A DNA stretch of 64,000 nucleotides. It comes from Candidatus Poseidoniaceae archaeon. GTDB lineage: Archaea; Thermoplasmatota; Poseidoniia; Poseidoniales; Poseidoniaceae. The notes beneath the pieces are model-generated. The model saw only the letters and a program-made list of their open reading frames with translations. It made no database searches and had not been told where the DNA came from. Position numbers and translations under genes: made by a program. Location of the stretch: the NCBI GenBank assembly GCA_943789275.1, contig CALSTM010000003.1, forward strand, positions 596,053 through 660,052. Reading direction: 5' to 3'. Below, one piece after another: positions 1 through 23,508 of this stretch (positions are counted from its first letter, which is position 1; every line of letters starts with the position of its first letter).

Positions 1-591
1 GGCAAGGACGGTAACGCTCTCACCGGTGTTAAAGGCGTAACTCGTGTCTTTGGTACAGCTACCGTGGTAATGGTCAAGGACGATCTCCAAGTCATCAAGG
101 GTATTGGCCCATTCATTGAAGAAAAGCTCAATGCGCTCGGAATCTACACTTACCTACAAGTCTCGAAGATGACCTCAAAACTTGAAACAGACGTCAACGA
201 GGCCATCGAGTTCTTCCCTGGCCGTGTCAAGCGAGACCAATGGGTCAACCAGGCGAAGATTTTGCTCGGTGAGGACGTGAAACTCGATGAGAAGGCACTC
301 AAGCAAGCCGAAGACCTCGAACGAATCTCCAAGAAGGCTGAGTCAATTGACTTCGCTACGCTTGGTGTTGCAAGCGCTTCCGAGAAGGACTCGCTGCAGA
401 CAATCAAAGGGATTGGTCCGTTTATTGAAGAGAAGTTGAATGCGCTTGGTATTTACACCTTCGAACAAGTTGGAAACATGACGCCTGATATTGAAGAACA
501 GGTCAACAAGGCCATCGAGTTCTTCCCAGGCCGTGTCAAGCGAGACCAATGGGCGAAGCAGGCTCGTGAATTGCACAGTAACAAAAAGTGA
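1..591 (+). CDS. C-terminal fragment of a protein ending in two tandem HhH-like domains (IKGIGPFIEEKLNALGIYT...FFPGRVKRDQW). The gene starts upstream of the window and is probably the cytoplasmic tail of a third giant-adhesin paralog.
   Basis: Frame 1 is open from base 1 with no stop before the listed GTG at 64. There are two ~58-aa internal repeats. The segment is about 85% identical at protein level to the C-terminal ~95 aa of the giant ORF that ends at 13092. Confidence 0.6.
   Translation, partial: GKDGNALTGVKGVTRVFGTATVVMVKDDLQVIKGIGPFIEEKLNALGIYTYLQVSKMTSKLETDVNEAIEFFPGRVKRDQWVNQAKILLGEDVKLDEKALKQAEDLERISKKAESIDFATLGVASASEKDSLQTIKGIGPFIEEKLNALGIYTFEQVGNMTPDIEEQVNKAIEFFPGRVKRDQWAKQARELHSNKK
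88..570 (+). repeat. Tandem duplication of a ~58-aa HhH-like domain, with copies at about 88-260 and about 397-570.
   Basis: The protein repeat IKGIGPFIEEKLNALGIYT(Y/F)xQVxxMTxxxExxVNxAIEFFPGRVKRDQW occurs twice within the ORF. Confidence 0.7.
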
Positions 592-860
592 TGCTCTCAT
601 TTCTGATTGTCATTTGGTGCGTTTTTGAGCCAACGGTGCATCGACTCAAGAAAAAATCTGACGTCGCGGGAATGGAAAACCAGTTCTCCAGAACGGTGGG
701 TTTTTGACACCTCACTACGGCAGTTCCTTAGAAAGGTTCTATTCTTTCCGACGTCAGCAAACATCATGGGCGTCGTGTTAAACGAGCGTAATGGCTGCAT
801 TTGGCGATTGGATGTTGGTCTTGTTCAGATGGTCGAGACTGATGTTTCTTTTGAAGGAAG

Positions 861-1550
861 GTGATATGTATGGGTGGATTAAAAGCGAGCGGTGATATGC
901 GGTATTTTCAGATACGTATTCTGCATGAGCAAGCCCAGCATTTACCAGGGAATATCCTTACGAAGTTCTTCAGCAAAGTGGAAATGGTTACTGGAACTGG
1001 GGTTGTGGACTCCATCCCAACATGTATTCTCAGGGTAGAGCATGATGGCGTTGACATTAGGAAACTCAAAGATCAACTCAAGGGGAGTTTAATCATCGAT
1101 AAAATCCTCCAAGAAGGGGATGATTATGCCTACTTGAAAGCGAAAACTCCTGGACCGATTCAACTCATTATTGGGGCTGAAGAGGAAGCATGGATTATGC
1201 CACCATCGTATCTCTCCAGAGAAAGTGGTTTCTTTATGACCATACACGGCACGCCGAAAGGGCTGAAGAGAATCAAAGACAAATTAGAGGCATTGATTCC
1301 TGAAAAAATGGATATGCGAATTTCAAAACTGATTATCGGCGATTGGATGTCTGCTCCAAAACTGCCAAATAAGCGTTATTTAGCTATTAAAACTGCAGTT
1401 GATATGGGTTATTACAGCACTCCTCGAAGGTGCAATCAAAGCGATATTGCAGAAGTTTTGGGTGTTAAACAAGGAACCGTTGCAGAACATTTACACTTCG
1501 CTGAAAGCATAATCATCAATTCTTGGTCCGAGCAAACATCGAGTTCATAG
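861..1550 (+). CDS. Bat-type (bacterio-opsin-activator-like) HTH_10 DNA-binding transcription regulator.
   Basis: The C-terminal motif LPNKRYLAIKTAVDMGYYSTPRRCNQSDIAEVLGVKQGTVAEHLHFAESII matches the HTH_10 signature (LTxRQRExLxxAxxxGYFDxPRxxxxxELAxxLGISxSTxxxHLRxAE). The listed start is GTG, and an ATG lies 9 nt downstream. Confidence 0.6.
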   Translation: MICMGGLKASGDMRYFQIRILHEQAQHLPGNILTKFFSKVEMVTGTGVVDSIPTCILRVEHDGVDIRKLKDQLKGSLIIDKILQEGDDYAYLKAKTPGPIQLIIGAEEEAWIMPPSYLSRESGFFMTIHGTPKGLKRIKDKLEALIPEKMDMRISKLIIGDWMSAPKLPNKRYLAIKTAVDMGYYSTPRRCNQSDIAEVLGVKQGTVAEHLHFAESIIINSWSEQTSSS

Positions 1551-2156
1551 CCCTCGGATTGAGATAATCGTTGCCAATATGAAAAGTAAACTTCCTAAAA
1601 CAGTAAATGCTTTTTTGAGGAACTTCGGCTCGTCTGTTTTCGATTTTATCTTCTCGCCAAGATTCGACCAAACCAACATGGCGAGAATCCCGCCGCTTGT
1701 TGTAATGCTGGTGATGGTCAAGATGCCAACTACACCTCCGCCGAAATCATCCAAAAATTTCGTCATCAACATGAACACCATGGCCCATTCCTTGCCATTT
1801 ACATATTGCATCAAGACGCCGGTTTTGAATCCTAATTTAGGGACCACTTCAGGAAAATTTTGTATTTTTTCCGAACGTCCAAGATACAAAATACCGAAGG
1901 CGATTAAAAACATGAATAACGAACCAATGATGTCCATTACGGTGCGGACTGTTCCGTCTTCATCAAAAGAATCAACAGCCATACCGCAGATGAAATGTAT
2001 GGAACTGAAGCCCAAAGCCATTCCAGCAATCAGCGGTAAATTACTTTTTTTTCCATGCACAACTGCATGAACTGTACAGGTAATGTTGTTCGGTCCAGGC
2101 GTAATCAATCCGGCGAGAAGTAATGCCAGTAAGTATGCTAACGAATCCCACGGCAT
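1545..2156 (-). CDS. LysE/RhtB-family amino-acid exporter.
   Basis: A ~200-aa polytopic membrane protein with the LysE-type motif AGLITPGPNN near the N-terminus. The internal ATG at 2156 gives the typical family length, whereas the ORF-track start at 2375 adds a non-hydrophobic 73-aa extension. Confidence 0.7.
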   Translation of the reverse strand: MPWDSLAYLLALLLAGLITPGPNNITCTVHAVVHGKKSNLPLIAGMALGFSSIHFICGMAVDSFDEDGTVRTVMDIIGSLFMFLIAFGILYLGRSEKIQNFPEVVPKLGFKTGVLMQYVNGKEWAMVFMLMTKFLDDFGGGVVGILTITSITTSGGILAMLVWSNLGEKIKSKTDEPKFLKKAFTVLGSLLFILATIISIRGL

Positions 2157-2399
2157 GCTGATGGCAATGAAATACACGGTATAGTTATTTTGTTGTGTTG
2201 CCGATTTAATGATTGGTCTGTTCGTTTTTCGGTTTCTTTGAGATTGACTAAACCGTCGTAGATTCAGCTCTTCTTGAACGGGGTTGAAGAGCCACTTGTG
2301 CGAAATTATAGGGTCAACTATGATAGTCAGTTCGTCGTTGGTTGGCGCATGAATGATGCCGATGGTATAGGTCACAGCCGTGTATTTGGACTAAAATCC

Positions 2400-2870
2400 A
2401 TGAAATCACTCCTTCTTGCCGTGTTAATGGTCTCCATGTCCCTTTCTGTGGGCCTTGTGGAACTGAACAAAGCCCCTTGGCTTGTTGAAGACGGTGAAAG
2501 CGAACTTGAAGAGTTAAACAATCCCATGCACACAACCGCACCTTCGATTTCCTATTCCTCAAGCACACTCGCTCTTTCCAACAACACCGCTATGACGCCA
2601 GTGACAGCGACGAATTCAGGTGGTACGGTTGGAGTTCCGGTGGCAATAGAACTCAGTACCATCGATGAATGGCTGTCTTTAGCCCTTGATTCTGATGGAT
2701 ACAGGCATGTTTCCGCTGCCGACACCACCAGTAGTGATCTCATGTATGCGACCGACACCAGTGGGGCTTGGGTCAACATAACCGTTGATGCTCCAGGACA
2801 GGTCGGGGAATACAACTCAATCGCTGTTGATTCTGAAGACGTCGTGCATATTGCCTACTTCAGCCTATAA
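2400..2870 (+). CDS. N-terminal signal-peptide-bearing segment of giant surface protein 1. It is separated from the body by an apparent +1 frameshift at about 2865-2870.
   Basis: MKSLLLAVLMVSMSLSVGLVELN is an N-terminal signal-like hydrophobic segment. The segment ends with the repeat ...IAVDSEDVVHIAYFSL followed by a stop. The same repeat unit (..K..DLKYATC..) continues in frame +1 from about 2866. The upstream ORF-track start (2274) is TTG and lacks a signal peptide. Confidence 0.5.
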   Translation: MKSLLLAVLMVSMSLSVGLVELNKAPWLVEDGESELEELNNPMHTTAPSISYSSSTLALSNNTAMTPVTATNSGGTVGVPVAIELSTIDEWLSLALDSDGYRHVSAADTTSSDLMYATDTSGAWVNITVDAPGQVGEYNSIAVDSEDVVHIAYFSL

Positions 2871-5800
2871 GGATGATACGAACGCACTTACTCAAGACCT
2901 CAAGTACGCTACGTGCGCATCATCATGCGCATCAGCATCTTCATGGTCAAACATCACCCTTGACGCCACTGGTTTTGTAGGCGAGAGAACCTCCATCGCA
3001 GTTGATTCAAATGATGGAGTGCATATTTCCTACACCGATAATACCAACAATGCACTGAAGTATACCATGTGCTCCTCATCTTGTGGTACAGCATCTTCAT
3101 GGTCGAATGTTTCTGTTGACGATATAGGAACCGGTGATACTAAACCAACTGATATCGCGATTGATTCAAACGATGCAGTACACATTGCCTACCATTGGCA
3201 AGGAATCAGTAATCTCAACATACGATATGCCACGTGTACTACCTCGTGTGCATCGGCATCCTCATGGACAAACACATCAGGTATTAGCCTCAGCAACATA
3301 CACGATGTGGCACTCGCAATTGATTCAAACGACGCACTGCACATTGCTGGCTATGATTATGACAATAAGGATATCATTTACCTCGCATGTACCTCTTCAT
3401 GTACTTCTACCTCTTCATGGTCAAATATTAGCGCTGTTACCACTGGCGAAGTTGGTGCACGATTATCGATTGCAGTTGATTCTACGAATAACCCACACAT
3501 ATCCTATCAGGCTGGTGCGTGGGCCGTACATGTTGGTCTGCCCCTTGGATACGCCACTTGCACTTCATCGTGTCTAACTGCCTCAAGCTTTTGGACTCAC
3601 GGTACTGTTCATAGCGGCTCCGCCGTTTACACCTATGGTACATCAATTGCAGTCAATCATAACAACGATAGCGTACATATCGTCCATGGCAATTTGTTTT
3701 CCAAATTTTACTACCTCGGCTCAGACACTGCTCCATATACCGTAAGTCCCGACCTTCCAAGTGGTTTGAGTTTGGATTGGAGCAGCGGAAAAATTTCTGG
3801 GACACCGAGAGAACTCTCCACCTCCACGATCTACACCATTACCGCAAGAAATGCACATGGTTCGGATACCGCAACACTGACCATTTCGGTCAACGCACCA
3901 CCTTCGCTGTCCTACGATTTGGGTACAGGAAACAGCACTTCAGTCTATTCCAACAAACAGGTTGCTGCAGGATACCAACACACCTGCGCCATTCTTGACA
4001 ATGGTTCTGTGATGTGCTGGGGAGAGAATGGCCACGGACAGTTAGGCAATGGTGGAACAGGCGACGAACACATACCCGTTTGGGTTGATCTTGGCACGGA
4101 TAGGACCGCCGTTGCGATCACTGCTGGATACAGACACACCTGCGCCATTCTTGACAACGGTTCAGTTTCCTGTTGGGGACAGGGAATTTTTGGGCAATTA
4201 GGTAATGGAGGAACATCACAACAAACCTCACCAACGCTCACCAGCAGCCTTGGAACCGGCCGTACGGCCGTAGCGATCACTGCTGGATACAGTCACACCT
4301 GCGTCATTCTTGACAACGGTTCAGTTTCCTGTTGGGGAATCGGAAATAAAGGACACTTGGGTAACGGAGGTACATCACAACAAAACTCACCAACGCTCAC
4401 CAGCAGCCTTGGTACCGGCCGTACGGCCGTAGCGATTTCTGCTGGACAATATCACTCCTGCGCCATTCTTGACAGCGGTTCAGTTTCCTGTTGGGGGTAT
4501 GGAATTGAGGGACAATTGGGTAACGGAGGTACATCACAACAAAACTCACCAACACTCACCAGCAGCCTTGGAACCGGTCGTACGGCCGTAGCGATTTCTG
4601 CTGGAGGCATCCACACCTGTGCCATACTTGACAACGGTTCAGTCTCATGTTGGGGGGAGGGAAGTAAAGGACGATTGGGTAACGGAGGTACATCACAACA
4701 AAACTCACCAACGCTCACCAACAGCCTTGGAACCGGTCGTACGGCCGTAGCGATTTCTGGTGGAGCCAAACACACCTGCGCCATTCTTGACAGCGGTTCA
4801 GTCTCATGTTGGGGAGATGGAGCCATTGGCATACTGGGTGACGGGGGGACATCAGATCAACACTCACCAACGCTCACCAGCAGCCTTGGAACTGGCCGAA
4901 CGGCAGTTGCGCTTGAGAATGGACACGCCCACACCTGTGCCATTCTTGACGACGCTTCCATGAAGTGTTGGGGAAATGACAACAACAAGCAGTTAGGCAA
5001 TGGAGCCACAGGCAGCACCGGCGACCCACCCGTTTTGGTATCAGGCAGCCATACGTGGGACTCCACGATGATTTCAGGTTCATCAAGTACAGTTTACCTT
5101 GTACAGAATGCGCTTATGAGTTCACTTTCTCCAACGTTAGACGCTGGCTTCGGTGCACCCACTTCATGCAACCAAACAGGGCTACCTTCTGGCCTTTTAC
5201 TTAGCACCACATGCGTGCTCTCAGGAACACCGACAACGTTGGGCAGTACAACGCTGACAATTACCCCCTCGAATGCAGAAGGTAATGGTTCTGCAGCCAT
5301 TTTTATCGTCAATGTGAATGCTTCAGGTGGTTCAATCACCATCAACACAACCTCCACCGAAGGTGGCGTAGGCAGTGCCATCTCAGACATCACCATGTCG
5401 TATACACACACCGCCAGCATTCCAAATTGGGTCTCAGGTGTGACCAACAGCACAATTAATCCAGCCCCCTCAATTCCAGCCGGCGGGGGTTCAAAACTTT
5501 CAATCGATTCTGGTCTAAACGGAGACATCGCAGCTGTGTATTCAGTGGAGCGAACCGGCGCGACCTCAGCCAATCTCTCCTTGCTCTACAAGTGGAACGG
5601 GGCATGGACAGAGAGTACCATTGACAGCAGTGTCGATACGGAGGTTCCATCGGTTGCTATCGACCGACAGGGAGCACTTCACATCGGGTATGTCGATAAG
5701 GACAATGCCAAGTTGAAGTACGCCACCAATGCATCTGGGTCTTGGGTCGTTGAAACGTTGGGTGATGCAGCGACTCACCAATTTGCACAAACGGCAATTT

Positions 5801-8800
5801 CAGTGCATCCGGTCACAAATGCAATTCATATCATGGCCGTGAACGGATCGACCATCCCAACCGCAGGATTGAATCATCACACAAACGAAACAGGTACCTG
5901 GCTCTACTCAACCATTTCTGACCCATCAGAGGAAGAGGGATTCGGGGTTAATTTCGATATTGACTCAGATGGTAACCTGCATGTTGTTTTCCGAAGAGAA
6001 GCCAACAGTGTCACGACCCCTCACTATGACCACTTGATAATGGCCAGTCGAATAAACGGTGTTTGGCAAAACCAGACCATTGCAATCAATCTGATTAACG
6101 GTGCGTATGGACATCACTTTGACATGGCCATTGATTCACAAGATCAAATACACGTAACATATCAAGGTAACCTCAATCAAGGAAAATGGATTTGGCATGG
6201 CGTATTATCAAGTGTTAACCCAAGCAGTAGCTGGGTTTTAACTCAATTATCTACCTCAGGATTTTACCCAGCTTTGGCCGTCGATTCAAACGACAATGTG
6301 CACCTTTCTTATCACGGTGGTGCGGGCTGTCCAAGGATCAGTGGTACCAAACATACACCTCTGGAACGTGGAGTTCGACGAATCGAAACAAGCGCCACCG
6401 CCGGCAACATTCATGGGGGTTACTTCAATGAAATGACCACAGATTCCAATGATGATGTCTTTATATTTGCTTATGGGCAAGTGGTTTCCACTTGCAAAAG
6501 TTGTGACATTCGAATAACCAGAATTCAAGGTTTAGGACCAAGTCTTGCGACGAATCCGATTTTCGAGGTATCACCACCACTCCCAGACGGACTGAACATG
6601 AACTGGCACAACGGTACCATTTCTGGAACACCGACTGAAACCCACGCGAACACTACACACACCGTCACAGTGACTGCCTTTGGCGCAACCACAACTGAAA
6701 CATTCACACTTATGGTCATTGAAGCAGCCGATATTTCCTACGCAGGTTCACCGTTTACGTTCACCAAGAACACCGAAGTCGTTGGAGAAACACCAACCAA
6801 CGCTGGTGGAGCAGTCATCACATGGGCAATTCACCCGCCAGCATCTTCGCTACCAAACGGTCTCTTGTTTGGCCCATCCAACGGAACCATCTACGGTACA
6901 CCGACCACTGTGGTCTCTTCCGCCGTTACGTTCACCGTTTGGGCGAACAATTCGGCTGACAGCAATTCGACAACCATTTCGATCACCGTTCAAGACGAAG
7001 CTCCTGACATTTCGTATGCAGGTTCACCGTTTACGTTCACCAAGAACACGGAAGTTGTTGGAGAAACACCAACCAACGCTGGTGGTGCGGTAAGCACATG
7101 GGCAATTCACCCGCCAGCATCTTCGCTACCAAACGGTCTCTTGTTTGGCACATCCAACGGAACCATCTACGGAACACCGACCACTGTGGTCTCTTCAGCC
7201 GTTACGTTCACGGTTTGGGCGAACAATTCTGCCGATGATATTTCGACAACCATTTCGATTACTGTTCAAGATGAAGATGCTGACATTTCGTACGCAGGTT
7301 CACCGTTCACATTCACCAAGAACAGTCTTGTGAGCGGTGCAACGCCAACTAACGTTGGTGGCGCACCAGATGCATGGGCTATTGATCCAGAAATCTCTAC
7401 CACGATTCCAGGACTCTCGTTCAACACCGCAACGGGTGCTATCACCGGTACGCCAACAGGAGTACATTCGGCCACTATGTTCACCGTTTGGGCCAACAAT
7501 TCCGCAGGTGATATTTCGACAACCATTTCGATCACCGTTCAAGATGAAGATGCTGACATTTCGTACGCAGGTTCACCGTTCACGTTCACCAAGAACAGTC
7601 TTGTGAGCGGTGCAACGCCAACTAACGTTGGTGGCGCACCAGATGCATGGGCTATTGATCCAGAAATCTCTACCACGATTCCAGGACTCTCGTTCAACAC
7701 CGCAACGGGTGCTATCACCGGTACGCCAACAGGAGTACATTCGGCCACTATGTTCACCGTTTGGGCCAACAATTCCGCAGGTGATATTTCGACAACCATT
7801 TCGATCACCGTTCAAGATGAAGATGCTGACATTTCGTACGCAGGTTCACCGTTCACATTCACCAAGAACAGTCTTGTGAGCGGTGCAACGCCAACTAACG
7901 TTGGTGGCGCACCAGATGCATGGGCTATTGATCCAGAAATCTCTACCACGATTCCAGGACTCTCGTTCAACACCGCAACGGGTGCTATCACCGGTACGCC
8001 AACAGGAGTACATTCGGCCACTATGTTCACCGTTTGGGCCAACAATTCCGCAGGTGATATTTCGACAACCATTTCGATCACCGTTCAAGATGAAGATGCT
8101 GACATTTCGTACGCAGGTTCACCGTTCACATTCACCAAGAACAGTCTTGTGAGCGGTGCAACGCCAACTAACGTTGGTGGCGCACCAGATGCATGGGCTA
8201 TTGATCCAGAAATCTCTACCACGATTCCAGGACTCTCGTTCAACACTGCAACGGGTGCTATCACCGGTACGCCAACAGGAGTACATTCGGCCACTATGTT
8301 CACCGTTTGGGCCAACAATTCCGCAGGTGATATTTCGACAACCATTTCGATCACCGTTCAAGATGAAGATGCTGACATTTCGTACGCAGGTTCACCGTTC
8401 ACATTCACCAAGAACAGTCTTGTGAGCGGTGCAACGCCAACTAACGTTGGTGGCGCACCAGATGCATGGGCTATTGATCCAGAAATCTCTACCACGATTC
8501 CAGGACTCTCGTTCAACACCGCAACGGGTGCTATCACCGGTACGCCAACAGGAGTACATTCGGCCACTATGTTCACCGTTTGGGCCAACAATTCCGCAGG
8601 TGATATTTCGACAACCATTTCGATCACTGTGAACGACATTGCACCAGTTTTCACATATTCATCCCTCGAAGTGACATTAACCAATAATTCGGCGGTATCG
8701 CTCTTGCCAATCAGCACGGGCGGGGCGGTCACATCGTGGGAGTACGTAGGAACTGAACCACTCGGTTTGAACTTCGAAGGCGGAAATGGAACCATTTGGG

Positions 8801-11800
8801 GCACACCAACCGTTGTTCAATCGAAAACTCAATACTTGATTTGGGGGAACAATTCAGGTGGACAGCTTTTGGTTTACATGAACATCACCATTTCTGATGT
8901 GCCTGTTTCCTTGAGTTACACCTCTGACAATTACAACCTCACGCGTGCTGTCACAATGACAACGCCAATCAGTCCAGTTTACACTGGTATTGTTGATGCG
9001 TGGGGCATTGAACCTTCACCTACATTGGCGGGTCTCTCTTGGGATTCATCCACAGGTGTGATTTCAGGTACGCCAAACATCAACATGACCCGAACAGAAT
9101 ACACCGTTTGGGCAAACAATACCGGTGGTAACGTGTCTCATAAGTTCAACATCACCATCAACGAACCGATTGTGACCTTGGTCTACACTCCTGCGAGCGA
9201 AACCTTTGTTCGAGGTACGACAATCACCAACTGGCTCCCAACGGTGACCGGTGGAAACGTCGAAACTTGGGGCATTGAACCTTCAATTACGGGAACTGGT
9301 CTTTCGTTTGTCAACGGAGTGATTTCGGGTACACCGACCATCAACATGACCCAAGCCGATTACATCGTATGGGCCAACACGACCGGTGGCGAGACCAACT
9401 TTACCATCAGCATTACCATCAATGAACCGATTGTGACCTTGGTCTACACTCCTGCGAGCGAAACCTTTGTTCGAGGTACGACAATCACCAACTGGCTCCC
9501 AACGGTGACCGGTGGAAACGTCGAAACTTGGGGCATTGAACCTTCAATTACGGGAACTGGTCTTTCGTTTGTCAACGGAGTGATTTCGGGTACACCGACC
9601 ATCAACATGACCCAAGCCGATTACATCGTATGGGCCAACACAACCGGTGGCGAGACCAACTTTACCATCACCATCACCATCAATGAACCGATTGTGACCT
9701 TGGTCTACACTCCTGCGAGCGAAACCTTTGTTCGAGGTACGACAATCACCAACTGGCTCCCAACGGTGACCGGTGGAAACGTCGAAACTTGGGGCATTGA
9801 ACCTTCAATTACGGGAACTGGTCTTTCGTTTGTCAACGGAGTGATTTCGGGTACACCGACCATCAACATGACCCAAGCCGATTACATCGTATGGGCCAAC
9901 ACAACCGGTGGCGAGACCAACTTTACCATCACCATCACCATCAACGAACCTGGAGTCATCCTTGAGTACAATCCAGAAAATGTAATCGTCACAATTGGTG
10001 ACCCAATGACTGCGTTGACCCCAATTGTCAGCAACGGGAGCGTTGAGATATGGAGCATTTATCCCGAACTTGATAATGGATTGAACTTTGCAAACGGAAT
10101 CATCTCAGGAACGCCAACAAGCATTCAATCAAAACAAACCTACAAGATTTGGGCTAACAACACAGGCGGCAATACATATCACGATGTCAACATCACAATC
10201 CTTGACATCGTTCCTGAAATTTCCTACAGTCTCGTAAGCATTGACCTTACTAATGATACGACAAGCAGTGAGTTGCCTCTCTCCCCGAGTAACCTCGGCG
10301 GTCCAGTGGTGTCATGGTCGATTACGCCAGACCTCAGCCTTGGCTTGTCGTTTGACCCTGCAACCGGCGTCATCAGTGGAACACCCACTGAAGTCACAGC
10401 ACTTCGAGTCTACACCGTTACTGCAACAAATACAGGTGGAACGAGCACGACAGAGATTGAAATCACCGTTCTTGACCAAGTTCCGATGATTGCATACGTG
10501 CCTTCGGATGAAGTTCTGCTCTTGAACGAGAGTGTCCTGAACATGGTACCTGAATCCACGGGTGGAGCAATCACGGGCTGGTCAATCACACCTGAGCCAT
10601 CTGCTGGTTTGTTCTTTGACGCATCGACCGGTGTTTTCAGCGGTACGCCTACGGAGACAATGATTCGAACCCTGTACGAGATTACAGCAACAAATGATGT
10701 GGGAAGCATGACCGTTTCGGTTAACATCACCGTTGAAGATTTGAATTACAACCTCTCGCTTGGTCCGATTTATTTGCTCATTAATGAGGAAATGTTGAGT
10801 TTAGAACCGACATCAACCCTCTCTGATGCTGTCTATGAAGTCAGCCCAGATCTGCCTGATGGTCTCTTCCTTGGAGAAAGCAATGGAACCATTTGGGGCA
10901 CACCAACGGTTGGAATGCCTCTGACAAATTTCACCATCTATGCCAACAGCAGTTTGTTCAATGATGTGCTTGAAATCCAAATCGGAGTCCTAGAAGATTC
11001 AGATTCGGATGGAATGCCGAACCAACTGCCGCTTGGTTACAATCCACTCGGCGGTCTTACCGAAGACTTGGACGATGACGGTGACGGCTTCACTGATGCC
11101 GAGGAAAGCGAATGCGTTTCAGACGCATTGGATGCAGATTCAGCGCCAACCGACCTCGATGGCGATTCCATCTGCGACGCATTGGATGATGACGTCGACG
11201 GCGATGGCTTGTTGAATGATGTTGAAACAAACACCTCAACCTACGTGGATGAGAACGATACTGGAACCGACTCAATGAACGCTGACACCGACGGTGACGG
11301 CGTTTGCGATGGACCTCAAGTGCCAGCTAACGGCGGCTGCACCGCAGGACCAGATGTGTTCCCACTCGACCCTGCAGGCTCCGTTGACAGCGATGGTGAC
11401 GGCATGCCGGACACTTTGAACGGTGAATCCACCAGTTCACCACCTCTGGTCGAAGACCTCGATGACGACAACGACGCTTGGTCTGACGAGATGGAAGCAG
11501 CATGTGGAACGGACAGCGTCGATTCGAACAGTGTTCCTAGCGATGAAGACGCCGACGAAATCTGTGACAGCCTTGACACGAACCTGGACCTGCCGTTCAA
11601 CCTCACATACCCAACCGATACATTGACTGTAACATTAGGTGAAGAGATTTCAATCCTGCTTCCAAACCTCACCGGTTTGGGTGAAGTGTCTTCTTGGGAG
11701 ATTGAAGGTGAATTGCCCGAGGGATTGACCTTTGGCTGGAGTCCAGCAAGGGATGCTGCTCTTGACGGAAGTATACGTGGTACACCAACTGCAGTAATGT

Positions 11801-13092
11801 CTGCGACCGTCTTTACCATCTGGGCGAACAACTCTGCATACAGTCAATCGTTTGAACTTACGATTACTGTTCTCGAAGACCTCGTTCTTCCAAATGATGA
11901 TGGTGATGCTGGTGTTGATGAGGATGATGAGGACACCCCGCTGCTCCTCACTTGGGGTTACATCTGTTGCCCGTTGCTTCTTCTGCTTCTGCTGTCCGTC
12001 TTTATGTTGTTCTTCATCGGTGAAAAACAAGTCGTTATCGATGCTGAACCTTCAAACACTTTTGTAAAACCAGTTAGCAAAAGAGGCACAGGTACTCAAG
12101 AAGATCCTTTCGTATTGAAATCAATTGGAGGTCTCAAACCCGGTGGAAAAGCGAACAGCCATGAACGAATTACATTCGTCGGCTTGACAGTAGAGAGTAT
12201 TGAAATAATCGATTTGGAGCAAAAGAACAATGGAAATAAATTTTCCATGTTCATGCTCAAGCCAGCCTCCAGTGAAACGGGTGTTCGAATGCTTGGTATC
12301 GACGAGAATGTAGACACCACCATTGGCATGAGATTCGATGACAGTAAAGAAGAATCTTCCGTTAAGGGCGATGAATATTCAGCGTTGTTGAAAATTGGCA
12401 AATCCAGTGTTTACTTTTCTTGGACGGTGACGGTTAAACCGAGCAAGGTCAACAAAGTGAAGCCTAGAGAACCAATAGTGACGATTAAATCGACACAATC
12501 CATGTCCAAATCGGGTTCAATGAGTTCTTCTGAACCAAAGTCGTCCGTGGAGGAGAAGGCTGCAAAGGATGCTGAAGCTAAGGCTGCAAAGGATGCCAAA
12601 GCGCAAGCAGATGCGGATACTAAGGCGGCAAAGGAAGCCAAAGCGCAAGCAGATGCGGATGCTAAGGCGGCAAAGGAAGCCAAAGCGCAAGCAGATGCGG
12701 ATGCTAAGGCGGCGAAGGAACTCAAAGCACAAGCGGATTCAGAAGCCAAAGCAGTTAAAGAAGCCAGAGCCAAAGTCGACGAAGATGCTGCAGCTGTTGC
12801 CAAAAAGGCAGAAGAATTGGAACGTATCGCAAAGCGGGCTAAAAGTATTGATTTCGCTACGCTCGGTGTGGCTAACATCGGTGAAAAAGATGACCTGCAA
12901 GCCATCAAGGGCGTTGGTCCGTTCATCGGAGAAAAGTTGAATGCACTCGGCATCTTTACGTTTGAGCAAGTCGGAAACATGACGCCTGAAATTGAAGAAC
13001 AGGTCAACAAAGCGATTGAATTTTTCCCTGGCCGCGTTAAGCGAGACCAGTGGGCGAAGCAAGCAAGGCAACTTCATCATGATAAAAAGTGA
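2785..13092 (+). CDS. Body of giant secreted, membrane-anchored adhesin-like protein 1 (3435-aa ORF, ~3,600 aa with the N-terminal segment). It contains beta-propeller-like repeats, RCC1-like repeats, tandem Ig-like (He_PIG or cadherin-like) domains, TSP3-like Ca-binding repeats, a single TM helix, and a cytoplasmic tail with AK-rich repeats and an HhH-like domain.
   Basis: A single 10.3-kb ORF. The RCC1 signature HTCAILDNGSVSCWGxGxxGQLGNGG occurs seven times. LPxGLxFxxxxGxIxGTPT Ig-like units number more than 20. The acidic repeats include DxDxDGxxD (DTDGDGVCD). The hydrophobic helix is LLLTWGYICCPLLLLLLLSVFMLFFIG. The C-terminus is IKGVGPFIGEKLNALGIFTFEQV...FFPGRVKRDQW. Confidence 0.85.
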   Translation: MMLQDRSGNTTQSLLILKTSCILPTSAYKDDTNALTQDLKYATCASSCASASSWSNITLDATGFVGERTSIAVDSNDGVHISYTDNTNNALKYTMCSSSCGTASSWSNVSVDDIGTGDTKPTDIAIDSNDAVHIAYHWQGISNLNIRYATCTTSCASASSWTNTSGISLSNIHDVALAIDSNDALHIAGYDYDNKDIIYLACTSSCTSTSSWSNISAVTTGEVGARLSIAVDSTNNPHISYQAGAWAVHVGLPLGYATCTSSCLTASSFWTHGTVHSGSAVYTYGTSIAVNHNNDSVHIVHGNLFSKFYYLGSDTAPYTVSPDLPSGLSLDWSSGKISGTPRELSTSTIYTITARNAHGSDTATLTISVNAPPSLSYDLGTGNSTSVYSNKQVAAGYQHTCAILDNGSVMCWGENGHGQLGNGGTGDEHIPVWVDLGTDRTAVAITAGYRHTCAILDNGSVSCWGQGIFGQLGNGGTSQQTSPTLTSSLGTGRTAVAITAGYSHTCVILDNGSVSCWGIGNKGHLGNGGTSQQNSPTLTSSLGTGRTAVAISAGQYHSCAILDSGSVSCWGYGIEGQLGNGGTSQQNSPTLTSSLGTGRTAVAISAGGIHTCAILDNGSVSCWGEGSKGRLGNGGTSQQNSPTLTNSLGTGRTAVAISGGAKHTCAILDSGSVSCWGDGAIGILGDGGTSDQHSPTLTSSLGTGRTAVALENGHAHTCAILDDASMKCWGNDNNKQLGNGATGSTGDPPVLVSGSHTWDSTMISGSSSTVYLVQNALMSSLSPTLDAGFGAPTSCNQTGLPSGLLLSTTCVLSGTPTTLGSTTLTITPSNAEGNGSAAIFIVNVNASGGSITINTTSTEGGVGSAISDITMSYTHTASIPNWVSGVTNSTINPAPSIPAGGGSKLSIDSGLNGDIAAVYSVERTGATSANLSLLYKWNGAWTESTIDSSVDTEVPSVAIDRQGALHIGYVDKDNAKLKYATNASGSWVVETLGDAATHQFAQTAISVHPVTNAIHIMAVNGSTIPTAGLNHHTNETGTWLYSTISDPSEEEGFGVNFDIDSDGNLHVVFRREANSVTTPHYDHLIMASRINGVWQNQTIAINLINGAYGHHFDMAIDSQDQIHVTYQGNLNQGKWIWHGVLSSVNPSSSWVLTQLSTSGFYPALAVDSNDNVHLSYHGGAGCPRISGTKHTPLERGVRRIETSATAGNIHGGYFNEMTTDSNDDVFIFAYGQVVSTCKSCDIRITRIQGLGPSLATNPIFEVSPPLPDGLNMNWHNGTISGTPTETHANTTHTVTVTAFGATTTETFTLMVIEAADISYAGSPFTFTKNTEVVGETPTNAGGAVITWAIHPPASSLPNGLLFGPSNGTIYGTPTTVVSSAVTFTVWANNSADSNSTTISITVQDEAPDISYAGSPFTFTKNTEVVGETPTNAGGAVSTWAIHPPASSLPNGLLFGTSNGTIYGTPTTVVSSAVTFTVWANNSADDISTTISITVQDEDADISYAGSPFTFTKNSLVSGATPTNVGGAPDAWAIDPEISTTIPGLSFNTATGAITGTPTGVHSATMFTVWANNSAGDISTTISITVQDEDADISYAGSPFTFTKNSLVSGATPTNVGGAPDAWAIDPEISTTIPGLSFNTATGAITGTPTGVHSATMFTVWANNSAGDISTTISITVQDEDADISYAGSPFTFTKNSLVSGATPTNVGGAPDAWAIDPEISTTIPGLSFNTATGAITGTPTGVHSATMFTVWANNSAGDISTTISITVQDEDADISYAGSPFTFTKNSLVSGATPTNVGGAPDAWAIDPEISTTIPGLSFNTATGAITGTPTGVHSATMFTVWANNSAGDISTTISITVQDEDADISYAGSPFTFTKNSLVSGATPTNVGGAPDAWAIDPEISTTIPGLSFNTATGAITGTPTGVHSATMFTVWANNSAGDISTTISITVNDIAPVFTYSSLEVTLTNNSAVSLLPISTGGAVTSWEYVGTEPLGLNFEGGNGTIWGTPTVVQSKTQYLIWGNNSGGQLLVYMNITISDVPVSLSYTSDNYNLTRAVTMTTPISPVYTGIVDAWGIEPSPTLAGLSWDSSTGVISGTPNINMTRTEYTVWANNTGGNVSHKFNITINEPIVTLVYTPASETFVRGTTITNWLPTVTGGNVETWGIEPSITGTGLSFVNGVISGTPTINMTQADYIVWANTTGGETNFTISITINEPIVTLVYTPASETFVRGTTITNWLPTVTGGNVETWGIEPSITGTGLSFVNGVISGTPTINMTQADYIVWANTTGGETNFTITITINEPIVTLVYTPASETFVRGTTITNWLPTVTGGNVETWGIEPSITGTGLSFVNGVISGTPTINMTQADYIVWANTTGGETNFTITITINEPGVILEYNPENVIVTIGDPMTALTPIVSNGSVEIWSIYPELDNGLNFANGIISGTPTSIQSKQTYKIWANNTGGNTYHDVNITILDIVPEISYSLVSIDLTNDTTSSELPLSPSNLGGPVVSWSITPDLSLGLSFDPATGVISGTPTEVTALRVYTVTATNTGGTSTTEIEITVLDQVPMIAYVPSDEVLLLNESVLNMVPESTGGAITGWSITPEPSAGLFFDASTGVFSGTPTETMIRTLYEITATNDVGSMTVSVNITVEDLNYNLSLGPIYLLINEEMLSLEPTSTLSDAVYEVSPDLPDGLFLGESNGTIWGTPTVGMPLTNFTIYANSSLFNDVLEIQIGVLEDSDSDGMPNQLPLGYNPLGGLTEDLDDDGDGFTDAEESECVSDALDADSAPTDLDGDSICDALDDDVDGDGLLNDVETNTSTYVDENDTGTDSMNADTDGDGVCDGPQVPANGGCTAGPDVFPLDPAGSVDSDGDGMPDTLNGESTSSPPLVEDLDDDNDAWSDEMEAACGTDSVDSNSVPSDEDADEICDSLDTNLDLPFNLTYPTDTLTVTLGEEISILLPNLTGLGEVSSWEIEGELPEGLTFGWSPARDAALDGSIRGTPTAVMSATVFTIWANNSAYSQSFELTITVLEDLVLPNDDGDAGVDEDDEDTPLLLTWGYICCPLLLLLLLSVFMLFFIGEKQVVIDAEPSNTFVKPVSKRGTGTQEDPFVLKSIGGLKPGGKANSHERITFVGLTVESIEIIDLEQKNNGNKFSMFMLKPASSETGVRMLGIDENVDTTIGMRFDDSKEESSVKGDEYSALLKIGKSSVYFSWTVTVKPSKVNKVKPREPIVTIKSTQSMSKSGSMSSSEPKSSVEEKAAKDAEAKAAKDAKAQADADTKAAKEAKAQADADAKAAKEAKAQADADAKAAKELKAQADSEAKAVKEARAKVDEDAAAVAKKAEELERIAKRAKSIDFATLGVANIGEKDDLQAIKGVGPFIGEKLNALGIFTFEQVGNMTPEIEEQVNKAIEFFPGRVKRDQWAKQARQLHHDKK
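3960..5010 (+). repeat. Seven RCC1-like (beta-propeller blade) repeats of about 150 bp each, encoded within giant gene 1.
   Basis: Recurring xHTCAILDxGSVxCWGxxxxGQLGNGGTSQQNSPTLTSSLGTGRTAVAIxAG. Several copies share long identical nucleotide runs (for example acggttcagtttcctgttgggg). Confidence 0.75.
6724..8635 (+). repeat. Seven tandem 273-bp (91-aa) Ig-like domain repeats. The last five (7271-8635) are nearly identical at nucleotide level.
   Basis: The protein unit DADISYAGSPFTFTKNSLVSGATPTNVGGAPDAWAIDPEISTTIPGLSFNTATGAITGTPTGVHSATMFTVWANNSAGDISTTISITVQDE occurs five times. Spurious antisense and alternate-frame ORFs recur with an exact 273-nt period (7266, 7539, 7812, 8085, 8358) and identical translations. 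Confidence 0.9.
9163..9945 (+). repeat. Three near-identical tandem repeats of about 261 bp (87 aa), each encoding an Ig-like domain.
   Basis: EPIVTLVYTPASETFVRGTTITNWLPTVTGGNVETWGIEPSITGTGLSFVNGVISGTPTINMTQADYIVWANTTGGETNFTI(S/T)ITIN occurs three times. The nucleotide copies are visibly identical. Confidence 0.85.
12590..12720 (+). repeat. About three tandem copies of a 60-bp repeat encoding the Ala/Lys-rich unit AKEAKAQADADAKAAK in the cytoplasmic tail of giant protein 1.
   Basis: The string gcaaaggaagccaaagcgcaagcagatgcggatgctaaggcggca repeats three times with a 60-nt period. Confidence 0.8.
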
Positions 13093-13177: not shown

Positions 13178-13501
13178 ATGAGAGGGGACGCCGTAGGTAT
13201 GCCTCTCTTTCAATCGGGCCACTCTGCTGTGTTGAACAGAAAGTCCATCAAGTCAATTTGGCTTGCAGTTTTGATGGTTTCAATGTCGCTTTCTGTTGGC
13301 ATCGTTGAATTGAACCGGACACCGTTGGTAGATGCCATTGGTGTAGCAAGTGTTGGAGCAGGCTGTGCGTTTATCACTCGGGCCAGCGGCGAGGCAATCT
13401 ATGTCGATCCGGTCAACGGTTCGGATGCTTGGGACGGCACCTGGTCGTGTCCAAAAGCAACACTTTCCGATGCTCTGAACGACTCCATTTCAGAACGATG
13501 A
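13178..13501 (+). CDS. N-terminal signal-peptide segment of giant locus 2. It ends at a stop and continues in frame +1.
   Basis: The signal peptide ...KSIWLAVLMVSMSLSVGIVELN matches that of gene 1. YVDPVNGSDAWDGTWSCPKATLSDALNDS is the usual N-terminal lead-in of right-handed beta-helix proteins. The continuation (ND)EIVLYSGRYHENVTVDG lies in the next frame from about 13479. Confidence 0.5.
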   Translation: MRGDAVGMPLFQSGHSAVLNRKSIKSIWLAVLMVSMSLSVGIVELNRTPLVDAIGVASVGAGCAFITRASGEAIYVDPVNGSDAWDGTWSCPKATLSDALNDSISER

Positions 13502-16500
13502 AATCGTACTGTACAGCGGGCGGTATCACGAAAACGTCACTGTTGATGGCAAGGACAACCTTCTGATTCGTGCAGCCGATGGAGCCCGTGTTGTCTTTGA
13601 CGGTACTCGAAGCATTACTGAAGATTTAGGTGGTGTTTGGGGTGCAGCCGACAGCGATGGAATCCAAGAAGTCACTTTGCCTGTTGATGGCTGGCAACTG
13701 TTCCTTGCCTACGAAGAACAAGTTCCTGCTCGATGGCCAAATGCCCAATTCTCTGATGAAACGGTCTTCAATCGTTCGTACTGGGCTGAAGGCACATTGA
13801 CCGGTTCAAACAATGCCTACACGCAAGGCTGGTTGACAGATGCTGGTCCTGAAACAGGTGTTCACACAGGCCTCAATGAAACAATTAACGCCACAGGCCT
13901 CGACCCTGAAGGGGCTATTGCGGTGATGAACCTCGGTTCGTTCCGCTCCAACAGCCGTGTCATCACCGATTGGAATTCGGCCAACGGGACGTTTGCATAC
14001 GATGGCACTGGCGTAGGTTGGAAAACCAAGCATCACGCTTACTTCCTTGAGGGCAAGCGAGAACTCATCGATGTCGATGGTGAATGGTGGTTCAACAATG
14101 CAATCAACCGCCTGCATTACAAAACGCCAAGCGGGCAGAATGCAAACAATTTGGATTTGCGTGTCAAGGTACAACCGTTTGCGATGAGCGTTGAAAACTC
14201 CGACGGCGTGACCATCCAAGGCCTCGATTTCTTTGGAACGACGGTCAACTTCAACGAATGCGATGGATGCAGTTTCACCAATTCGACCCTCGAATATCCA
14301 AGCACCTCAAAGCGTGGATTGGGTATTGCCGGCGAATCAGAAGATGACCGTTGGATGACACGTTTCTATCGTTCAACCAACTCGTTTGTCGACAACATTT
14401 CCATCACCAACACCGACGGTGGCGCTCTTGAATTCCAAGGGTCTGCGGGTCAGTCGCACAACAACACGGTGAACAATTCCTACTTCCACGCCATCGACTG
14501 GTCAGCTGCCGACCAGAAAGGACTGATGGTCACAATTTACGAGGGAGGCCGAGACATGTACTTCACCAACAACACCGTTCACTTGACCGGGGCTTCATCC
14601 GTACTCTCCATTGGTGATGCGCCCAAGGTGTTCTACAACGAAGTCTGGGATGTTGGGCATTTGCAAACTGATGGCGCTGTTGTTCAGATCATGCAAGGTG
14701 AGGCCCCAGGTGCTGAAGTTGCTCACAACTGGATTCATGACATCATCAAGTACGGTGCCCGGTTTGATGCACCCATTGGAGAAGCGGGAGAAGGCCGGAA
14801 TGGAACCATGCATCACAATGTCATTTGGAATGTAACGGGCGGTTTGATGGTTAAGGGGGACTATCACGACGTCCACAACAACACGGTGTTCAATTCCTCA
14901 GATGGCAAAAATGACATCATTGCCCTCACCGATGGCGAGATCAACAACAAAAATTCGACGTTTCACCGCAATGCGGTGGATAAGATGGCCGACCATCGCT
15001 CAGGCTCATGGTCGCTTTATCCACTTCCCGCTGGGACGTATTGGAACAACTGGAACGGCTACGTCAACACCACGGATACGGTTTGGAATCAACTGGTTGA
15101 CCCTGCCAATTACGATTTCAGACCGAAGACCAACTCCCATCTTGACAACATGAGTGCGGGTGCATACGATGCTGGTGTGAGCAATCCGTGGACGGCCGGT
15201 ATTTCTTGGACATACACGACGCCCGATGCACCGGTCGAAGGGTGTATGCTCGATTATGCTGACAACTACGATGCAGACGCCACGCTATCAGACGGCTCGT
15301 GCTCCTTCGCATCGTATACGCCACCGGCCACGCTCGACCTCCGTCTCCATCTTGACCCAACCAACAGCAGTTCCTACAGCGGCAGCGGCACCAACGTCGC
15401 TGACCTTTCTGGGTTCAACAACTACGGAACCGTCGCCGCCGCTGGACCGACATGGGACGGCGATTTCACACGCTTCTCCTACGATGGGGCGTGCACTGGC
15501 TCGACCCCGAACCTGGTTTGCGATGAGATCGAAGTTTCTGACTCAACGAGCTTGCGCCCGGGCGGAAACGACTGGTCGGTATCAGTTTGGTTCAACGCCT
15601 CAACGCACCAACACAGCGTGATACTCGGCGCCTTCGACGACGGAGGGGCAGCAGTGGATGTTGGATGGGCCATCCGAATGAGAGCATCAGGTGGCATCTA
15701 TGCAAATGTGGGAACCACTTCCAACAATTCGGCCGCATGGACGTCAGAAGCATCCATCGATACGGACCGCTGGTATCACGTGGTCTTGGTTGCAGACCCG
15801 GGAAATACCCTCAGACTCTATGTTGATGGGCAAAACGTCGGAAGCGGTTCCTTGTCTGGAAGTGGAGCCCTGCGCAATGTAAGCAACAGCCTCTTCATCG
15901 CCTCCTACAACGGCGGTGAATATTCTCAGACCTTTGATGGACAAGTTGGTTCCGTCATGGCCTTTGCCGATGCACTCAACGCCACCACCATCAATCAAAT
16001 CTACAATGCAAGCAAGGGTGTGTACAGCAACACGACCACCCTGTCCTTCCCTCAATCTTCACCGACCTTGCTCCTCGGTCAAACATACAGTTTCCCCATG
16101 ACTGTCGCCAACGGTGAGATCACGACGTCCTATTCGCTCACGGGAACCTTGCCAAGCGGCATGAATTTCGAATCGAGCAACGGTACGATTTGGGGAACGC
16201 CAACGGCGGCTATGTCAACCACGAGCTACACCGTGACGGCCAACAACTCAGCCGGCACCTACTCGACCTCGTTCTCGTTGACATCGCAACATGCGGCACC
16301 GTACGATTTGGCCTACGCGCCAGAGAACATGACCCTTGAGAAGGGTACGGCCATGACGACCAACACGCCGAGTGTGAGCGGGGGCGCCATCACATCTTGG
16401 GAAATCAACCCCTCCGTGCCAACTGGACTTTCCTTTAGCACCTCAACCGGTGCCATCAGTGGTACGCCTTACGTGTTGCAAACAACAGCAACCACGTACA

Positions 16501-19500
16501 CGATATGGGCCAACAATTCAGGCGGAAATGCTTCAGCACAGGTCAACATCACCATCAACGATGAAGTGCCGATTATTTCCTATTCGTATGATGACATTAC
16601 CGGTACCAAGAGCGTGGCCATCAGCCCCCATTCTGGTCCAACTACGAGCGGTGGGACCATCACCTCATGGGAGATTTCACCATCACCAGGTTCTGCGTTC
16701 CACTTTAATTCCGCAAATGGCTACATCAGCGGAACTCCGGGGATTCTTCTGGCTAGAACCCAATACACCATTTGGGCCAACAATTCAGGTGGTTCGTCCG
16801 TTGCCTATGTCAACGTGACCATCAACGATGCAGCGCCGAACGCGTTGGGTTATTCTCCAGAAAATATGACACTCGAGAAGGATACAGCGATGACGCCGAA
16901 CCTTCCTTCGGTCAGTGGTGGAACCATCACGTCATGGGAAATCAGTCCTTCTCTGCCGAGCGGTCTGACATGGGGGGCCTCGGATGGGAAAATCAGTGGA
17001 ACACCCGCCGTTCTGCAAACGACGACGGTTACGTACACGATTTGGGCCAACAACTCAGGTGGTTCAGATTCCGCTCAAGTGAACATCACCATCAACGACC
17101 AACTCGCATCTGCAACCTATCCTTCAACCGTTGAAGTATCCAACGACCGAGCGATGACGACGGTCTCGCCGACCGTCACCGGTGGAGCGGTCATCTCGTG
17201 GGTCATCGTGCCTTCACTCTCCTCAGGCCTCAATTTCGGTAGTAGCAACGGAAGCATCTGGGGCACGCCAACAGGATTGTTGGAGAACGCCACCTACACC
17301 GTCTATGCGAACAACAGCGGCGGTTCAACCAGCATTACCTTCACGCTCGGGCTCAACTGGACGCTGACGCCAAGTGCCGAGGGTGCCTTCATCACCCGCA
17401 ACAGTTCCATTGCCAGCGACATCACGTGGGAATGGGATTACGATCCGCTTGAAGCTCAGAACCTTTCATTGGTGACTGGAGAATGGAACACCTGTGCCCT
17501 TGATAGCAATCAAAACGTGTTTTGTTGGGGACGAAACGGCAACGGTCAAATCGGCAACGGACAAACTGGAACGTCTGGTTGCGGTACATCAGGCCACAAG
17601 TGCAAGGACATTCCAACAGCAACGAACGATTTGGGCTCGGACGTGATCTCCCTTGCCTTTGGCCACCAGCATGCATGTGGCTTGCTTGACACTGGTGCCG
17701 TGAAGTGTTGGGGCCGAAACAATGCAGGGCAACTTGGAACCAGCGGTGGAGACAAGGATACGCCTCAAACCATCAATCTCGGGTCAGGGCGAACCGCTAC
17801 GAGCATCTACGCCGGTGGCCACTACACCTGCGCCATCCTCGATGACGCCTCCGTCAAGTGCTGGGGGGAGAATGGGAACGGTCAACTCGGTATTGGTTCA
17901 AACTCGAACGCCAACACACCGACCACCATTAACACCCTCGGGTCAGGTCGCACGGCTATTTCTTTAGCAACCGCCATGAGTGCAGTCTGTGCCCTCCTCG
18001 ATGACGGTTCAGTCAAGTGTTGGGGAGCCTCCGCAAATGGCCAGTTAGGCAATGGGGGTACCAGTTCAAATCTGAAGAGTCCACCTGCATCTGCAATTAA
18101 CCTCGGAACCGGCCGTACTGCAAAAGCCATCACAGGTGGCGAATCCCATTTCTGCGCCATCCTCGATGACGATTCCATCAAGTGTTGGGGCAATGGATTC
18201 AATGGGAAACTAGGAACCGGGACAACTTCCCACAGATCAACACCAACCTCAACCAGCGGAAGTTTCGCTACAGGTCGCTATGCGGTCGCCATTGACGCTG
18301 GCTACGATCACACCTGTGCCATTCTCGATAACGGCCAACTCACATGCTGGGGTTCTGATTCTGATGGCCAACTGGGTAACGGCGCTACCACGGGTACGAA
18401 ATCATCGATTCAATCCACAACCGTCACTCTTGGGTCGGGACGAACGGCCATTTCGCTTTCTGCAGGTGGAGAGCACACCTGTGCGCAACTGGACAATGGA
18501 CAACTCAAGTGCTGGGGGAATCGAGCAGACGGTCAAGTTGGCGACAACGGGAATTTCAACAATCCGTCCGATCGCACGAGCCCTTCCTCCGTATCCAACA
18601 ACAACCACGGCGGATATACCTATCTCAATACGGGCGTCATGCCTTCTTCCGCTGTTACTGGCGCTACCTGCGAGATCTCGCCTTCCCTCCCAACCGGCCT
18701 CAGTTTGACCGCCGGCACCTGCACCATCACCGGCACACCGACCGCTACAGCCAGCAACGCCACCTACACCATTTGGGCCAACGTTTCCGGCACATCGTAC
18801 AGCGGTCAAATCTGGCTTGAAGTCGGTTTGAATGCACCGGACATTTCCTATTCGTCTTCGACCTATACCTACACCAAGGACATAGAAATTTTCACGCTCA
18901 ACCCAACCAACGTCGGTGGCGAAGTGACAACTTGGGCCATCAACGCAACGTTGCCATCAGGCCTTACATTCGAGACCAGTAACGGTACAATTTGGGGCAC
19001 ACCGGACACGATTACGGCATCAACCACCTACACGGTATGGGCGAACAATTCCGCTGATTCAGATTCCTTCACCATCACGTTCACCGTAAACGATGCTACT
19101 CCGAATTTCTATTACGGCAGCGCAAGCGGTGGAGGCGCACACACACTTGTCCTCTATCTGGATCAGACCATGAATCCACTCACGCCGACCCAGGCATCCG
19201 GGGGTGGAGCGATCACTTCGTGCAGCAGTTCACCATCACTGCCTTCTGGGCTGTCGTTGAGTTCAACATGTGTCCTTTCAGGAACACCTGATGCAACCGC
19301 TACCGGGGCCTTCTACACCATCACAGGAACCAACACAGGCGGTAGCGATACAGCATCGTTGTACATCGAAATCCGCTCCTATGGTGGAACATTGAGCGTG
19401 ACACCAAGCAACACTGAAGGCAGCGTGAACAGTTCCATCTCAGACATCACGATGTCCTATGCGCATCAAATCAGCAACTACGGTTGGACATCTGGTGTAA

Positions 19501-23309: not shown

Positions 23310-23508
23310 TGTGGCTTACTTTGGTCAACAAACATCTTCTGGAATTTTCTCGCTCTATGCTTACAATGCTTCAAATGCGACGCTATGGATGGTTTCAGGG
23401 AGTAATGCTAATCGTGGTGTTGCTGTAACTATTGACGGTGTATTGTATGGTAGTCGTGGTCTACAGTTCTCTTCCAGGTGGCTCTACACTCTGGGCGCAC
23501 AACCCTAA
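23173..23508 (+). CDS. Short frame-shifted fragment of giant locus 2 carrying kelch-like LYAYNASNATLWMVSG repeats.
   Basis: It continues the xLWAHNxSNGTxW repeat family seen at the end of the preceding ORF and the start of the following one. Confidence 0.35.
   Translation: MCLWQSSVTVVPTVVRHGRTTSATGHLGASQSYMMHTTAGAQVIGDVAYFGQQTSSGIFSLYAYNASNATLWMVSGSNANRGVAVTIDGVLYGSRGLQFSSRWLYTLGAQP

Follow-up and report, generated by a model that had tools for sequence, protein, structure and literature searches.

The reading-frame break in gene 1, which encodes a giant surface protein, is very probably an artefact of the assembly consensus rather than something carried in the genome of a cell. It was found in a stretch of 64,000 nucleotides from a Candidatus Poseidoniaceae archaeon, which we refer to as the window. 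In cells, gene 1 is most likely a single ORF of ~3,560 to 3,600 codons with conventional translation. The biological weight of the break is small, since gene 1 is almost certainly one ordinary ORF; the site is a clear worked example of an indel-broken gene prediction and not new biology.

The product of gene 1 contains RCC1 repeats and at least 14 He_PIG Ig-like domains, and its coding sequence was divided between two frames (Table 1). Frame 0 begins at ATG 2400 or at GTG 2298, the latter being the start chosen by the gene callers of sister assemblies (190 aa). The frame 0 translation reads MKSLLLAVLMVSMSLSVG...VHIAYFSL before the TAA, and the product of positions 2400 to 2870 runs MKSLLLAVLMVSMSLSVGLVELN...GEYNSIAVDSEDVVHIAYFSL. 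The open stretch of frame +1 spans 2782 to 13092 and, with the sequence ...AYKDDTNALTQDLKYATC..., carries on the same beta-propeller repeat; from 2869, the sequence KDDTNALTQDLKYATCASSCASASSWSNITLDATG... forms the remainder of the same propeller blade and is followed by more blades. The shift was due to a single extra base within positions 2865 to 2868, where CTAT is present as opposed to a 3-nt codon in relatives, and the junction with CTAT reads ...TTCAGCCTATAAGGAT.... A stop in frame 0 with the same repeat running onward in frame +1 had been noted in a preliminary description of this DNA, and the sequence was as described there. This continuity between frames is not due to chance, because ortholog proteins and the DNA of relatives align across the junction. 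The two overlapping ORFs jointly encode one protein homologous to single-ORF relatives. There is next to no probability that they represent two genuine genes, i.e., a small secreted protein of 156 to 190 aa and a large downstream protein from an internal start codon: a TTG at 2785 does open the +1 ORF, but the break interrupts a propeller blade midway, a protein from the downstream ORF would be without a signal peptide, and the orthologs are continuous, their alignments excluding this reading.

Table 1. Features of genes 1 and 2 and forms of the gene 1 junction codon in the window and in related assemblies
Feature	Position in window	Strand	Frame	Details
Frame 0 N-terminal ORF, gene 1	2298-2870	+		Signal peptide (ATG 2400, MKSLLLAVLMVSMSLSVGLVELN) and first propeller blade
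Haplotype-linked flanking SNPs	2860-2935	+		2860 T linked to TAT allele; 2935 G linked to CTT allele
Four-base "codon" CTAT with extra base	2865-2868	+		Hypervariable 3-nt codon in relatives
Frame 0 TAA stop arising from extra base	2868-2870	+		
Frame +1 continuation, gene 1	2869-13092	+		Propeller blades, RCC1 repeats, at least 14 He_PIG Ig-like domains, C-terminal conserved domain
Hypervariable patch, gene 1	6316-6384	+		At least 4 indel haplotypes among nine assemblies
N-terminal frame 2 piece, gene 2	13241-13501	+		Same signal-peptide type; ends ...ALNDSISER at TGA 13499-13501
GAAC, extra base in gene 2	13493-13496	+		Variable D/N codon
AGC TAT AAG (S-Y-K)			In frame	L020, L021, L022, L025
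AGC CTT AAG (S-L-K)			In frame	L023 (plus L005, L006)
AGC CTAT AAG			+1	Window, L024 (= L027), L026
AGC TT AAG			-1	L019

A search with the fused N terminus produced 1300 hits, and those with a name belonged to Candidatus Poseidoniaceae, Poseidonia or Thermoplasmatota (Marine Group II [MGII] archaea). Orthologs of gene 1 with 45 to 94% identity were unbroken across the junction, and their residue count was exactly that obtained by skipping one base (for example, VHIAYYSL-KDDTNALTKDLKYATC). The closest protein match was P0002, with 94% identity, and orthologous proteins of 85 to 94% identity aligned without a break (VHIAYYSLKDDTNALTKDLKYATC). At the DNA level, relatives aligned on both sides of the junction with 90 to 99.8% identity. 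DNA was available for 15 more distant loci, consisting of L001, three GTDB genomes (L002 to L004) and 11 metagenome contigs (L005 to L015). All 15 (72 to 98.8% nucleotide identity) had one base fewer than the window, a 3-nt codon and a continuous ORF; the extra base was present in 0 of the 11 loci from the metagenome contig scan. The junction codon was hypervariable across relatives, with TAT, CTT, CAT, TTT, ATG and AAT all being detected. The nearest of the 15 loci, L005, was 98.5% identical over positions 2384 to 7149 of the window (4.8 kb) and, like L006, had CTT at this codon. The junction base was the sole uncompensated indel in these 4.8 kb, with the remaining six gap openings clustering at 6316 to 6384 and summing to a multiple of three. 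The L005 contig (Ga0209534_10002669; 1 to 9984), which is the closest short-read relative, exhibited no similarity to the window upstream of 2384 (window 1 to 2383), and either its gene 1 lies in a different genomic context or the contig is chimeric.

Assemblies of the same species were obtained by an exact look-up of the neighboring LysE-like protein (window 1545 to 2156, minus strand), which worked from an internal ATG. Eight contigs of 0.29 to 1.03 Mb were recovered (L019 to L026; ENA analyses ERZ10646226 to ERZ10646689), with 98.4 to 99.8% identity to the window. Four outcomes were observed at the junction codon (Table 1): five of the eight assemblies were in frame, two had the +1 form with CTAT and one had the -1 form with TT. 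The source population thus contained at least two in-frame alleles, encoding Ser-Tyr-Lys and Ser-Leu-Lys, at a loop codon of the first propeller blade. The CTAT form corresponds to the union of the TAT and CTT alleles, and the TT of L019 to their intersection; when the alleles are aligned as AGC-TATAAG and AGCCT-TAAG, the window retains both of the optional columns and L019 retains neither. Both in-frame parental alleles were therefore present in one population together with a column-wise hybrid, the window, and its reciprocal. The flanking SNPs of the window were also a mosaic, combining the two haplotypes within 75 nt.

Other parts of gene 1 differed similarly between the same-species assemblies. 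The gene was cut at differing places in seven of the eight, with first ORFs of 98, 190, 190, 226, 1322, 1377 and 1552 aa, and extended for >3414 aa in the intact one. The hypervariable patch at 6316 to 6384 was in frame in the window, L020, L024, L025 and L026 and was frame broken in L022. The exact truncated 190-aa product (GTG 2298 to 2867) was found in 2 blocks of the collection, both being long contigs, and the one block that was read belonged to the same ERZ series; for comparison, the adjacent LysE-like protein was found in 103 blocks and two housekeeping proteins in 225 and 262. The rarity of the truncated product also speaks for a consensus artefact. Exact look-ups of the truncated product from ATG 2400 and ATG 2349 had no match, the GTG 2298 version being the only one on record, and those for the product of the upstream HTH_10 gene, from either of two alternative starts, also had no match.

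Programmed +1 slippage at CUA-UAA-G had been put forward in the preliminary description, and these data count heavily against it. In such a scheme, a ribosome paused at the stop codon, its P site occupied by tRNA-Leu, would skip U2868 and resume at AAG, so producing the full-length protein. A sense codon directly before a stop at a 0/+1 overlap is indeed the arrangement in prfB and antizyme, and skipping exactly one base would restore an ortholog-length product, ...YFSL-KDDTNAL, with a junction-spanning peptide of ...VHIAYFSLKDDTNALTQDLK.... The site was missing, however, from all 15 of the more distant loci and from six of the eight same-species assemblies, and five of these eight encode the gene 1 protein in one frame. 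After a +1 shift, the codon opposite the tRNA-Leu that reads CUA (anticodon UAG) would be UAU, which is mismatched at positions 2 and 3. The downstream 100 nt folded no better than shuffled sequences (z = -1.08), and the upstream 12 nt, GCCTACTTCAGC, were without a purine-rich Shine-Dalgarno-like tract. The CTATAAG heptamer carries no statistical weight, because it occurred once in the window against a chance expectation of 1.36 occurrences, and the remaining breaks of the window differ from it in context and include -1 and -2 changes. At CUA-UAA-G, conservation, re-pairing in the +1 frame (or another slippage-prone pair) and a stimulatory element were thus all lacking. Comparison of orthologs had been proposed in the preliminary description, with an intact ortholog that is without the motif being named as evidence against recoding; the relatives proved to lack both the extra base and the motif and to have one unbroken ORF. 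Overall, these results left programmed frameshifting with an extremely low probability.

Two known recoding systems resemble the gene 1 site in part. In the bacterial release factor 2 gene, prfB (CUU-UGA-C), a Leu codon likewise precedes an in-frame stop where the 0 and +1 ORFs overlap, and a skip of one base restores the full protein. The prfB site, however, is conserved across bacteria, has an upstream Shine-Dalgarno-like stimulator and has a CUU codon for which UUU allows re-pairing after the +1 shift; the gene 1 site is without all three of these features. Euplotes ciliates, in which a stop-dependent +1 shift occurs at AAA-UAA/UAG, share a sense codon and UAA at the frame junction. Frameshifting in Euplotes is genome-wide and lineage specific, with a conserved AAA-UAR motif in many genes, whereas gene 1 has a single non-conserved archaeal site that is absent from sister genomes.

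The four outcomes would be expected if reads of the TAT and CTT alleles had been collapsed into one contig. The two-base difference between the alleles would then be represented as an insertion plus a deletion, with the columns being decided independently; alternatively, a consensus based on an indel-favoring error model may prefer a "median" string that is one indel from each allele. Keeping both optional columns would give CTAT (+1) and dropping both would give TT (-1). The CTAT hybrid carried by the window places the TAA in frame and shifts the remainder of gene 1 to frame +1. A roughly even mixture of two alleles with independent column decisions would give all four outcomes. If the break arose in this manner, the underlying reads should fall into two classes, ...AGCTATAAGG... 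and ...AGCCTTAAGG..., and CTAT should be virtually absent from them, so that of the four strings AGCTATAAGG, AGCCTTAAGG, AGCCTATAAGG and AGCTTAAGG, only the first two would be expected among the reads. We infer this route from a strain mixture to a hybrid consensus from what is generally known of long-read polishers. Names of the type contig_N and scaffold_N, as used for these contigs, are consistent with Flye output, and the platform and polisher are presumed from these names.

A 1-nt indel error and a real inactivating mutation had also been listed as explanations in the preliminary description. The first of these is the one that the evidence favors. The second would require a recent 1-nt insertion, such that some cells carry a null or truncated gene 1 allele as a strain-level pseudogene, and such an insertion could be selected, for example where viruses use the lost surface protein as their receptor. 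Consistent with a real insertion, three assemblies that derive from different samples (the window, ERZ10646672 and ERZ10646650) had an identical CTAT, the giant genes belong to a hypervariable island in which SNPs are ~30-fold more numerous than in the housekeeping flank, and many database orthologs on long contigs are likewise truncated. The inserted base, however, makes exactly the union of both alleles, and a reciprocal -1 form is found at the same codon; two independent real mutations are unlikely because of this exact union and the reciprocal TT. The mosaic of flanking SNPs, the absence of the extra base from all 11 loci of the metagenome contig scan and the differing break points among near-identical assemblies also stand against it. 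We therefore regard a real insertion as improbable.

Phase-variable contingency loci present a further parallel, as they also have frame-breaking indels near the 5' ends of surface-protein genes, with +1 and -1 forms in one population. Indels at such loci occur in simple-sequence repeats, by gain or loss of repeat units, whereas the gene 1 site is without a homopolymer or short tandem repeat and its variants are the exact union and intersection of two substitution alleles. Tandem Repeats Finder detected no simple repeat at 2860 to 2875, and AGCCTATAAGG has no run of >2 bases. There is only a slight chance that CTAT (+1) and TT (-1) are real, maintained alleles, with MGII archaea switching giant adhesin genes or with a subpopulation rescuing the protein by low-level +1 frameshifting at CUA-UAA. 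If these forms were real, giant adhesins would be turned off, and perhaps on again, through indels in a hypervariable codon, for example in order to escape viruses that use these adhesins as receptors.

A similar break was present in gene 2, which continues in frame 0 (NDEIVLYSG...; ORF 13479 to 23309) past the TGA at 13499 to 13501, i.e., with a +1 break soon after the signal peptide. The orthologs of gene 2 were unbroken at this junction (ALNDSVS-DDEIILYSG and ALNDSVA-NDEIVLYSG), and the DNA of one ortholog, L028, read TCAGA-CGATG as opposed to TCAGAACGATG in the window. The D of the variable D/N codon is GAC in the L028 DNA; the N is from the P0123 protein alone, with an AAC codon being inferred. 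These parental alleles of gene 2 are known from orthologs that are 72 to 87% identical over the aligned N-terminal region and not from same-species assemblies. A homopolymer-type error, GAC to GAAC, is possible at this break. An error of that type was ruled out for the gene 1 site by the lack of any run of >2 bases.

Further frame-breaking indels were detected between 22.5 and 33.3 kb by alignment to paralogous repeat copies, a frame map from best tblastn hits being too coarse for their location. These indels lay at 25.78 to 25.98 kb (+1, +1 and -2), ~27368 (+1), ~27425 (-1) and ~30430 (-1), the last being a position at which the window is without one base where paralogous copies have T or C. 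A single 1863-aa ORF spans the 30.4-kb break in a sister contig, contig_8532, as compared to pieces of 1020 aa and 896 aa in the window. The occurrence of breaks soon after the signal peptides of both gene 1 and gene 2 is best read as a coincidence among at least eight breaks. The ORFs at 23432 to 25891, 25943 to 27331, 27459 to 30521 and 30431 to 33121 appear to be fragments of one giant He_PIG gene, or of two, cut by these indels, and the tail of gene 2 appears to switch frame around 23.2 to 23.5 kb.

When the window was compared with contig_8532, the housekeeping DNA (20,954 nt) had 5 mismatches without any gap, and the giant-gene region (9,620 nt) had 67 mismatches together with 11 gaps. 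The difference between 0 and 11 gaps for the same pair of contigs indicated that indels track strain variability and not position within the gene. Indels were thus limited to variable regions, with conserved regions being clean, and the giant surface-protein genes had ~30-fold more SNPs than the housekeeping flank. The housekeeping genes of the window gave full-length Pfam matches; together with the lack of housekeeping indels relative to the sister contig, these matches ruled out a generally error-ridden assembly. The giant-gene block (window 1 to 33000) behaves like a strain-variable island, having 0.70% mismatches against contig_8532 as compared to 0.024% in the housekeeping block (32130 to 64000).

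These patterns resemble the consensus errors of collapsed-strain long-read assemblies, which are the problem addressed by proovframe, Strainy and Strainberry. In such assemblies, as in the window, isolated 1- to 2-nt indels break ORFs in an otherwise excellent sequence, the errors are concentrated where co-assembled strains differ, break points vary between assemblies of the same population and hybrids are one indel from each true allele. A classic homopolymer-length error differs in that the gene 1 site is not a homopolymer. Small-indel frameshifts, which disrupt gene predictions, are a documented problem of gene calling in long-read genomes and metagenomes (10.1101/2021.08.23.457338; PMC10182627). 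For annotation, the giant surface-protein genes of MGII archaea are hypervariable between strains, and collapsed-strain assemblies cut them at differing points; apparent pseudogenes, split genes and recoding sites in these genes therefore need read-level support. The signature of four outcomes (allele A, allele B, union and intersection) provides a simple comparative test for separating a consensus artefact from a real frameshift.

Fragmentation of giant genes seems to be widespread in public MGII assemblies. Among the orthologs of genes 1 and 2 that databases place on long contigs of up to 1.3 Mb, many are just 200 to 800 aa in length (for example, P0122, P0123, P0127, P0130 and P0140). Several of the short orthologs end in tails that look out of frame, as in P0130, with ...FTNSTLTVSEYLKAWTGYCG as compared to a consensus of ...FTNSTLEYPSTSKRGLGIAG.

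Nearly identical 273-nt tandem repeats, corresponding to He_PIG units, were observed at 7334 to 8632 in gene 1 and were accompanied by periodic ORFs on both strands. Offset BLAST alignments between sister assemblies suggest that the copy number of this repeat may vary or that the repeat may be mis-assembled. Genes 1 and 2 have a nearly identical leader, KS(L/I)xLAVLMVSMSLSVG(L/I)VELN (window 2400 to 2470 and 13250 to 13320). This leader is almost invariant in gene 1 orthologs, with the remaining protein diverging to ~50% identity, and a different leader (LMIMLAQTSYIG) is present in the closer orthologs of gene 2. These leader sequences suggest a lineage-specific signal or sorting sequence that may be swappable between giant genes. 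A motif of ~35 to 60 aa (IEEQVNKAIEFFPGRVKRDQWAKQAR...) was found twice in the ORF at 64 to 591 and again at the C terminus of gene 1 (12990 to 13092). In sister assemblies, the ORF at 64 to 591 forms the C terminus of a giant ORF located upstream, which is as long as 6833 aa and gave faint Cdd1 and HHH_5 Pfam hits. Judged from its placement in these ORFs, the IEEQVNKAIEFFPGRVKRDQWAKQAR motif seems to be a shared C-terminal domain of the giant proteins.
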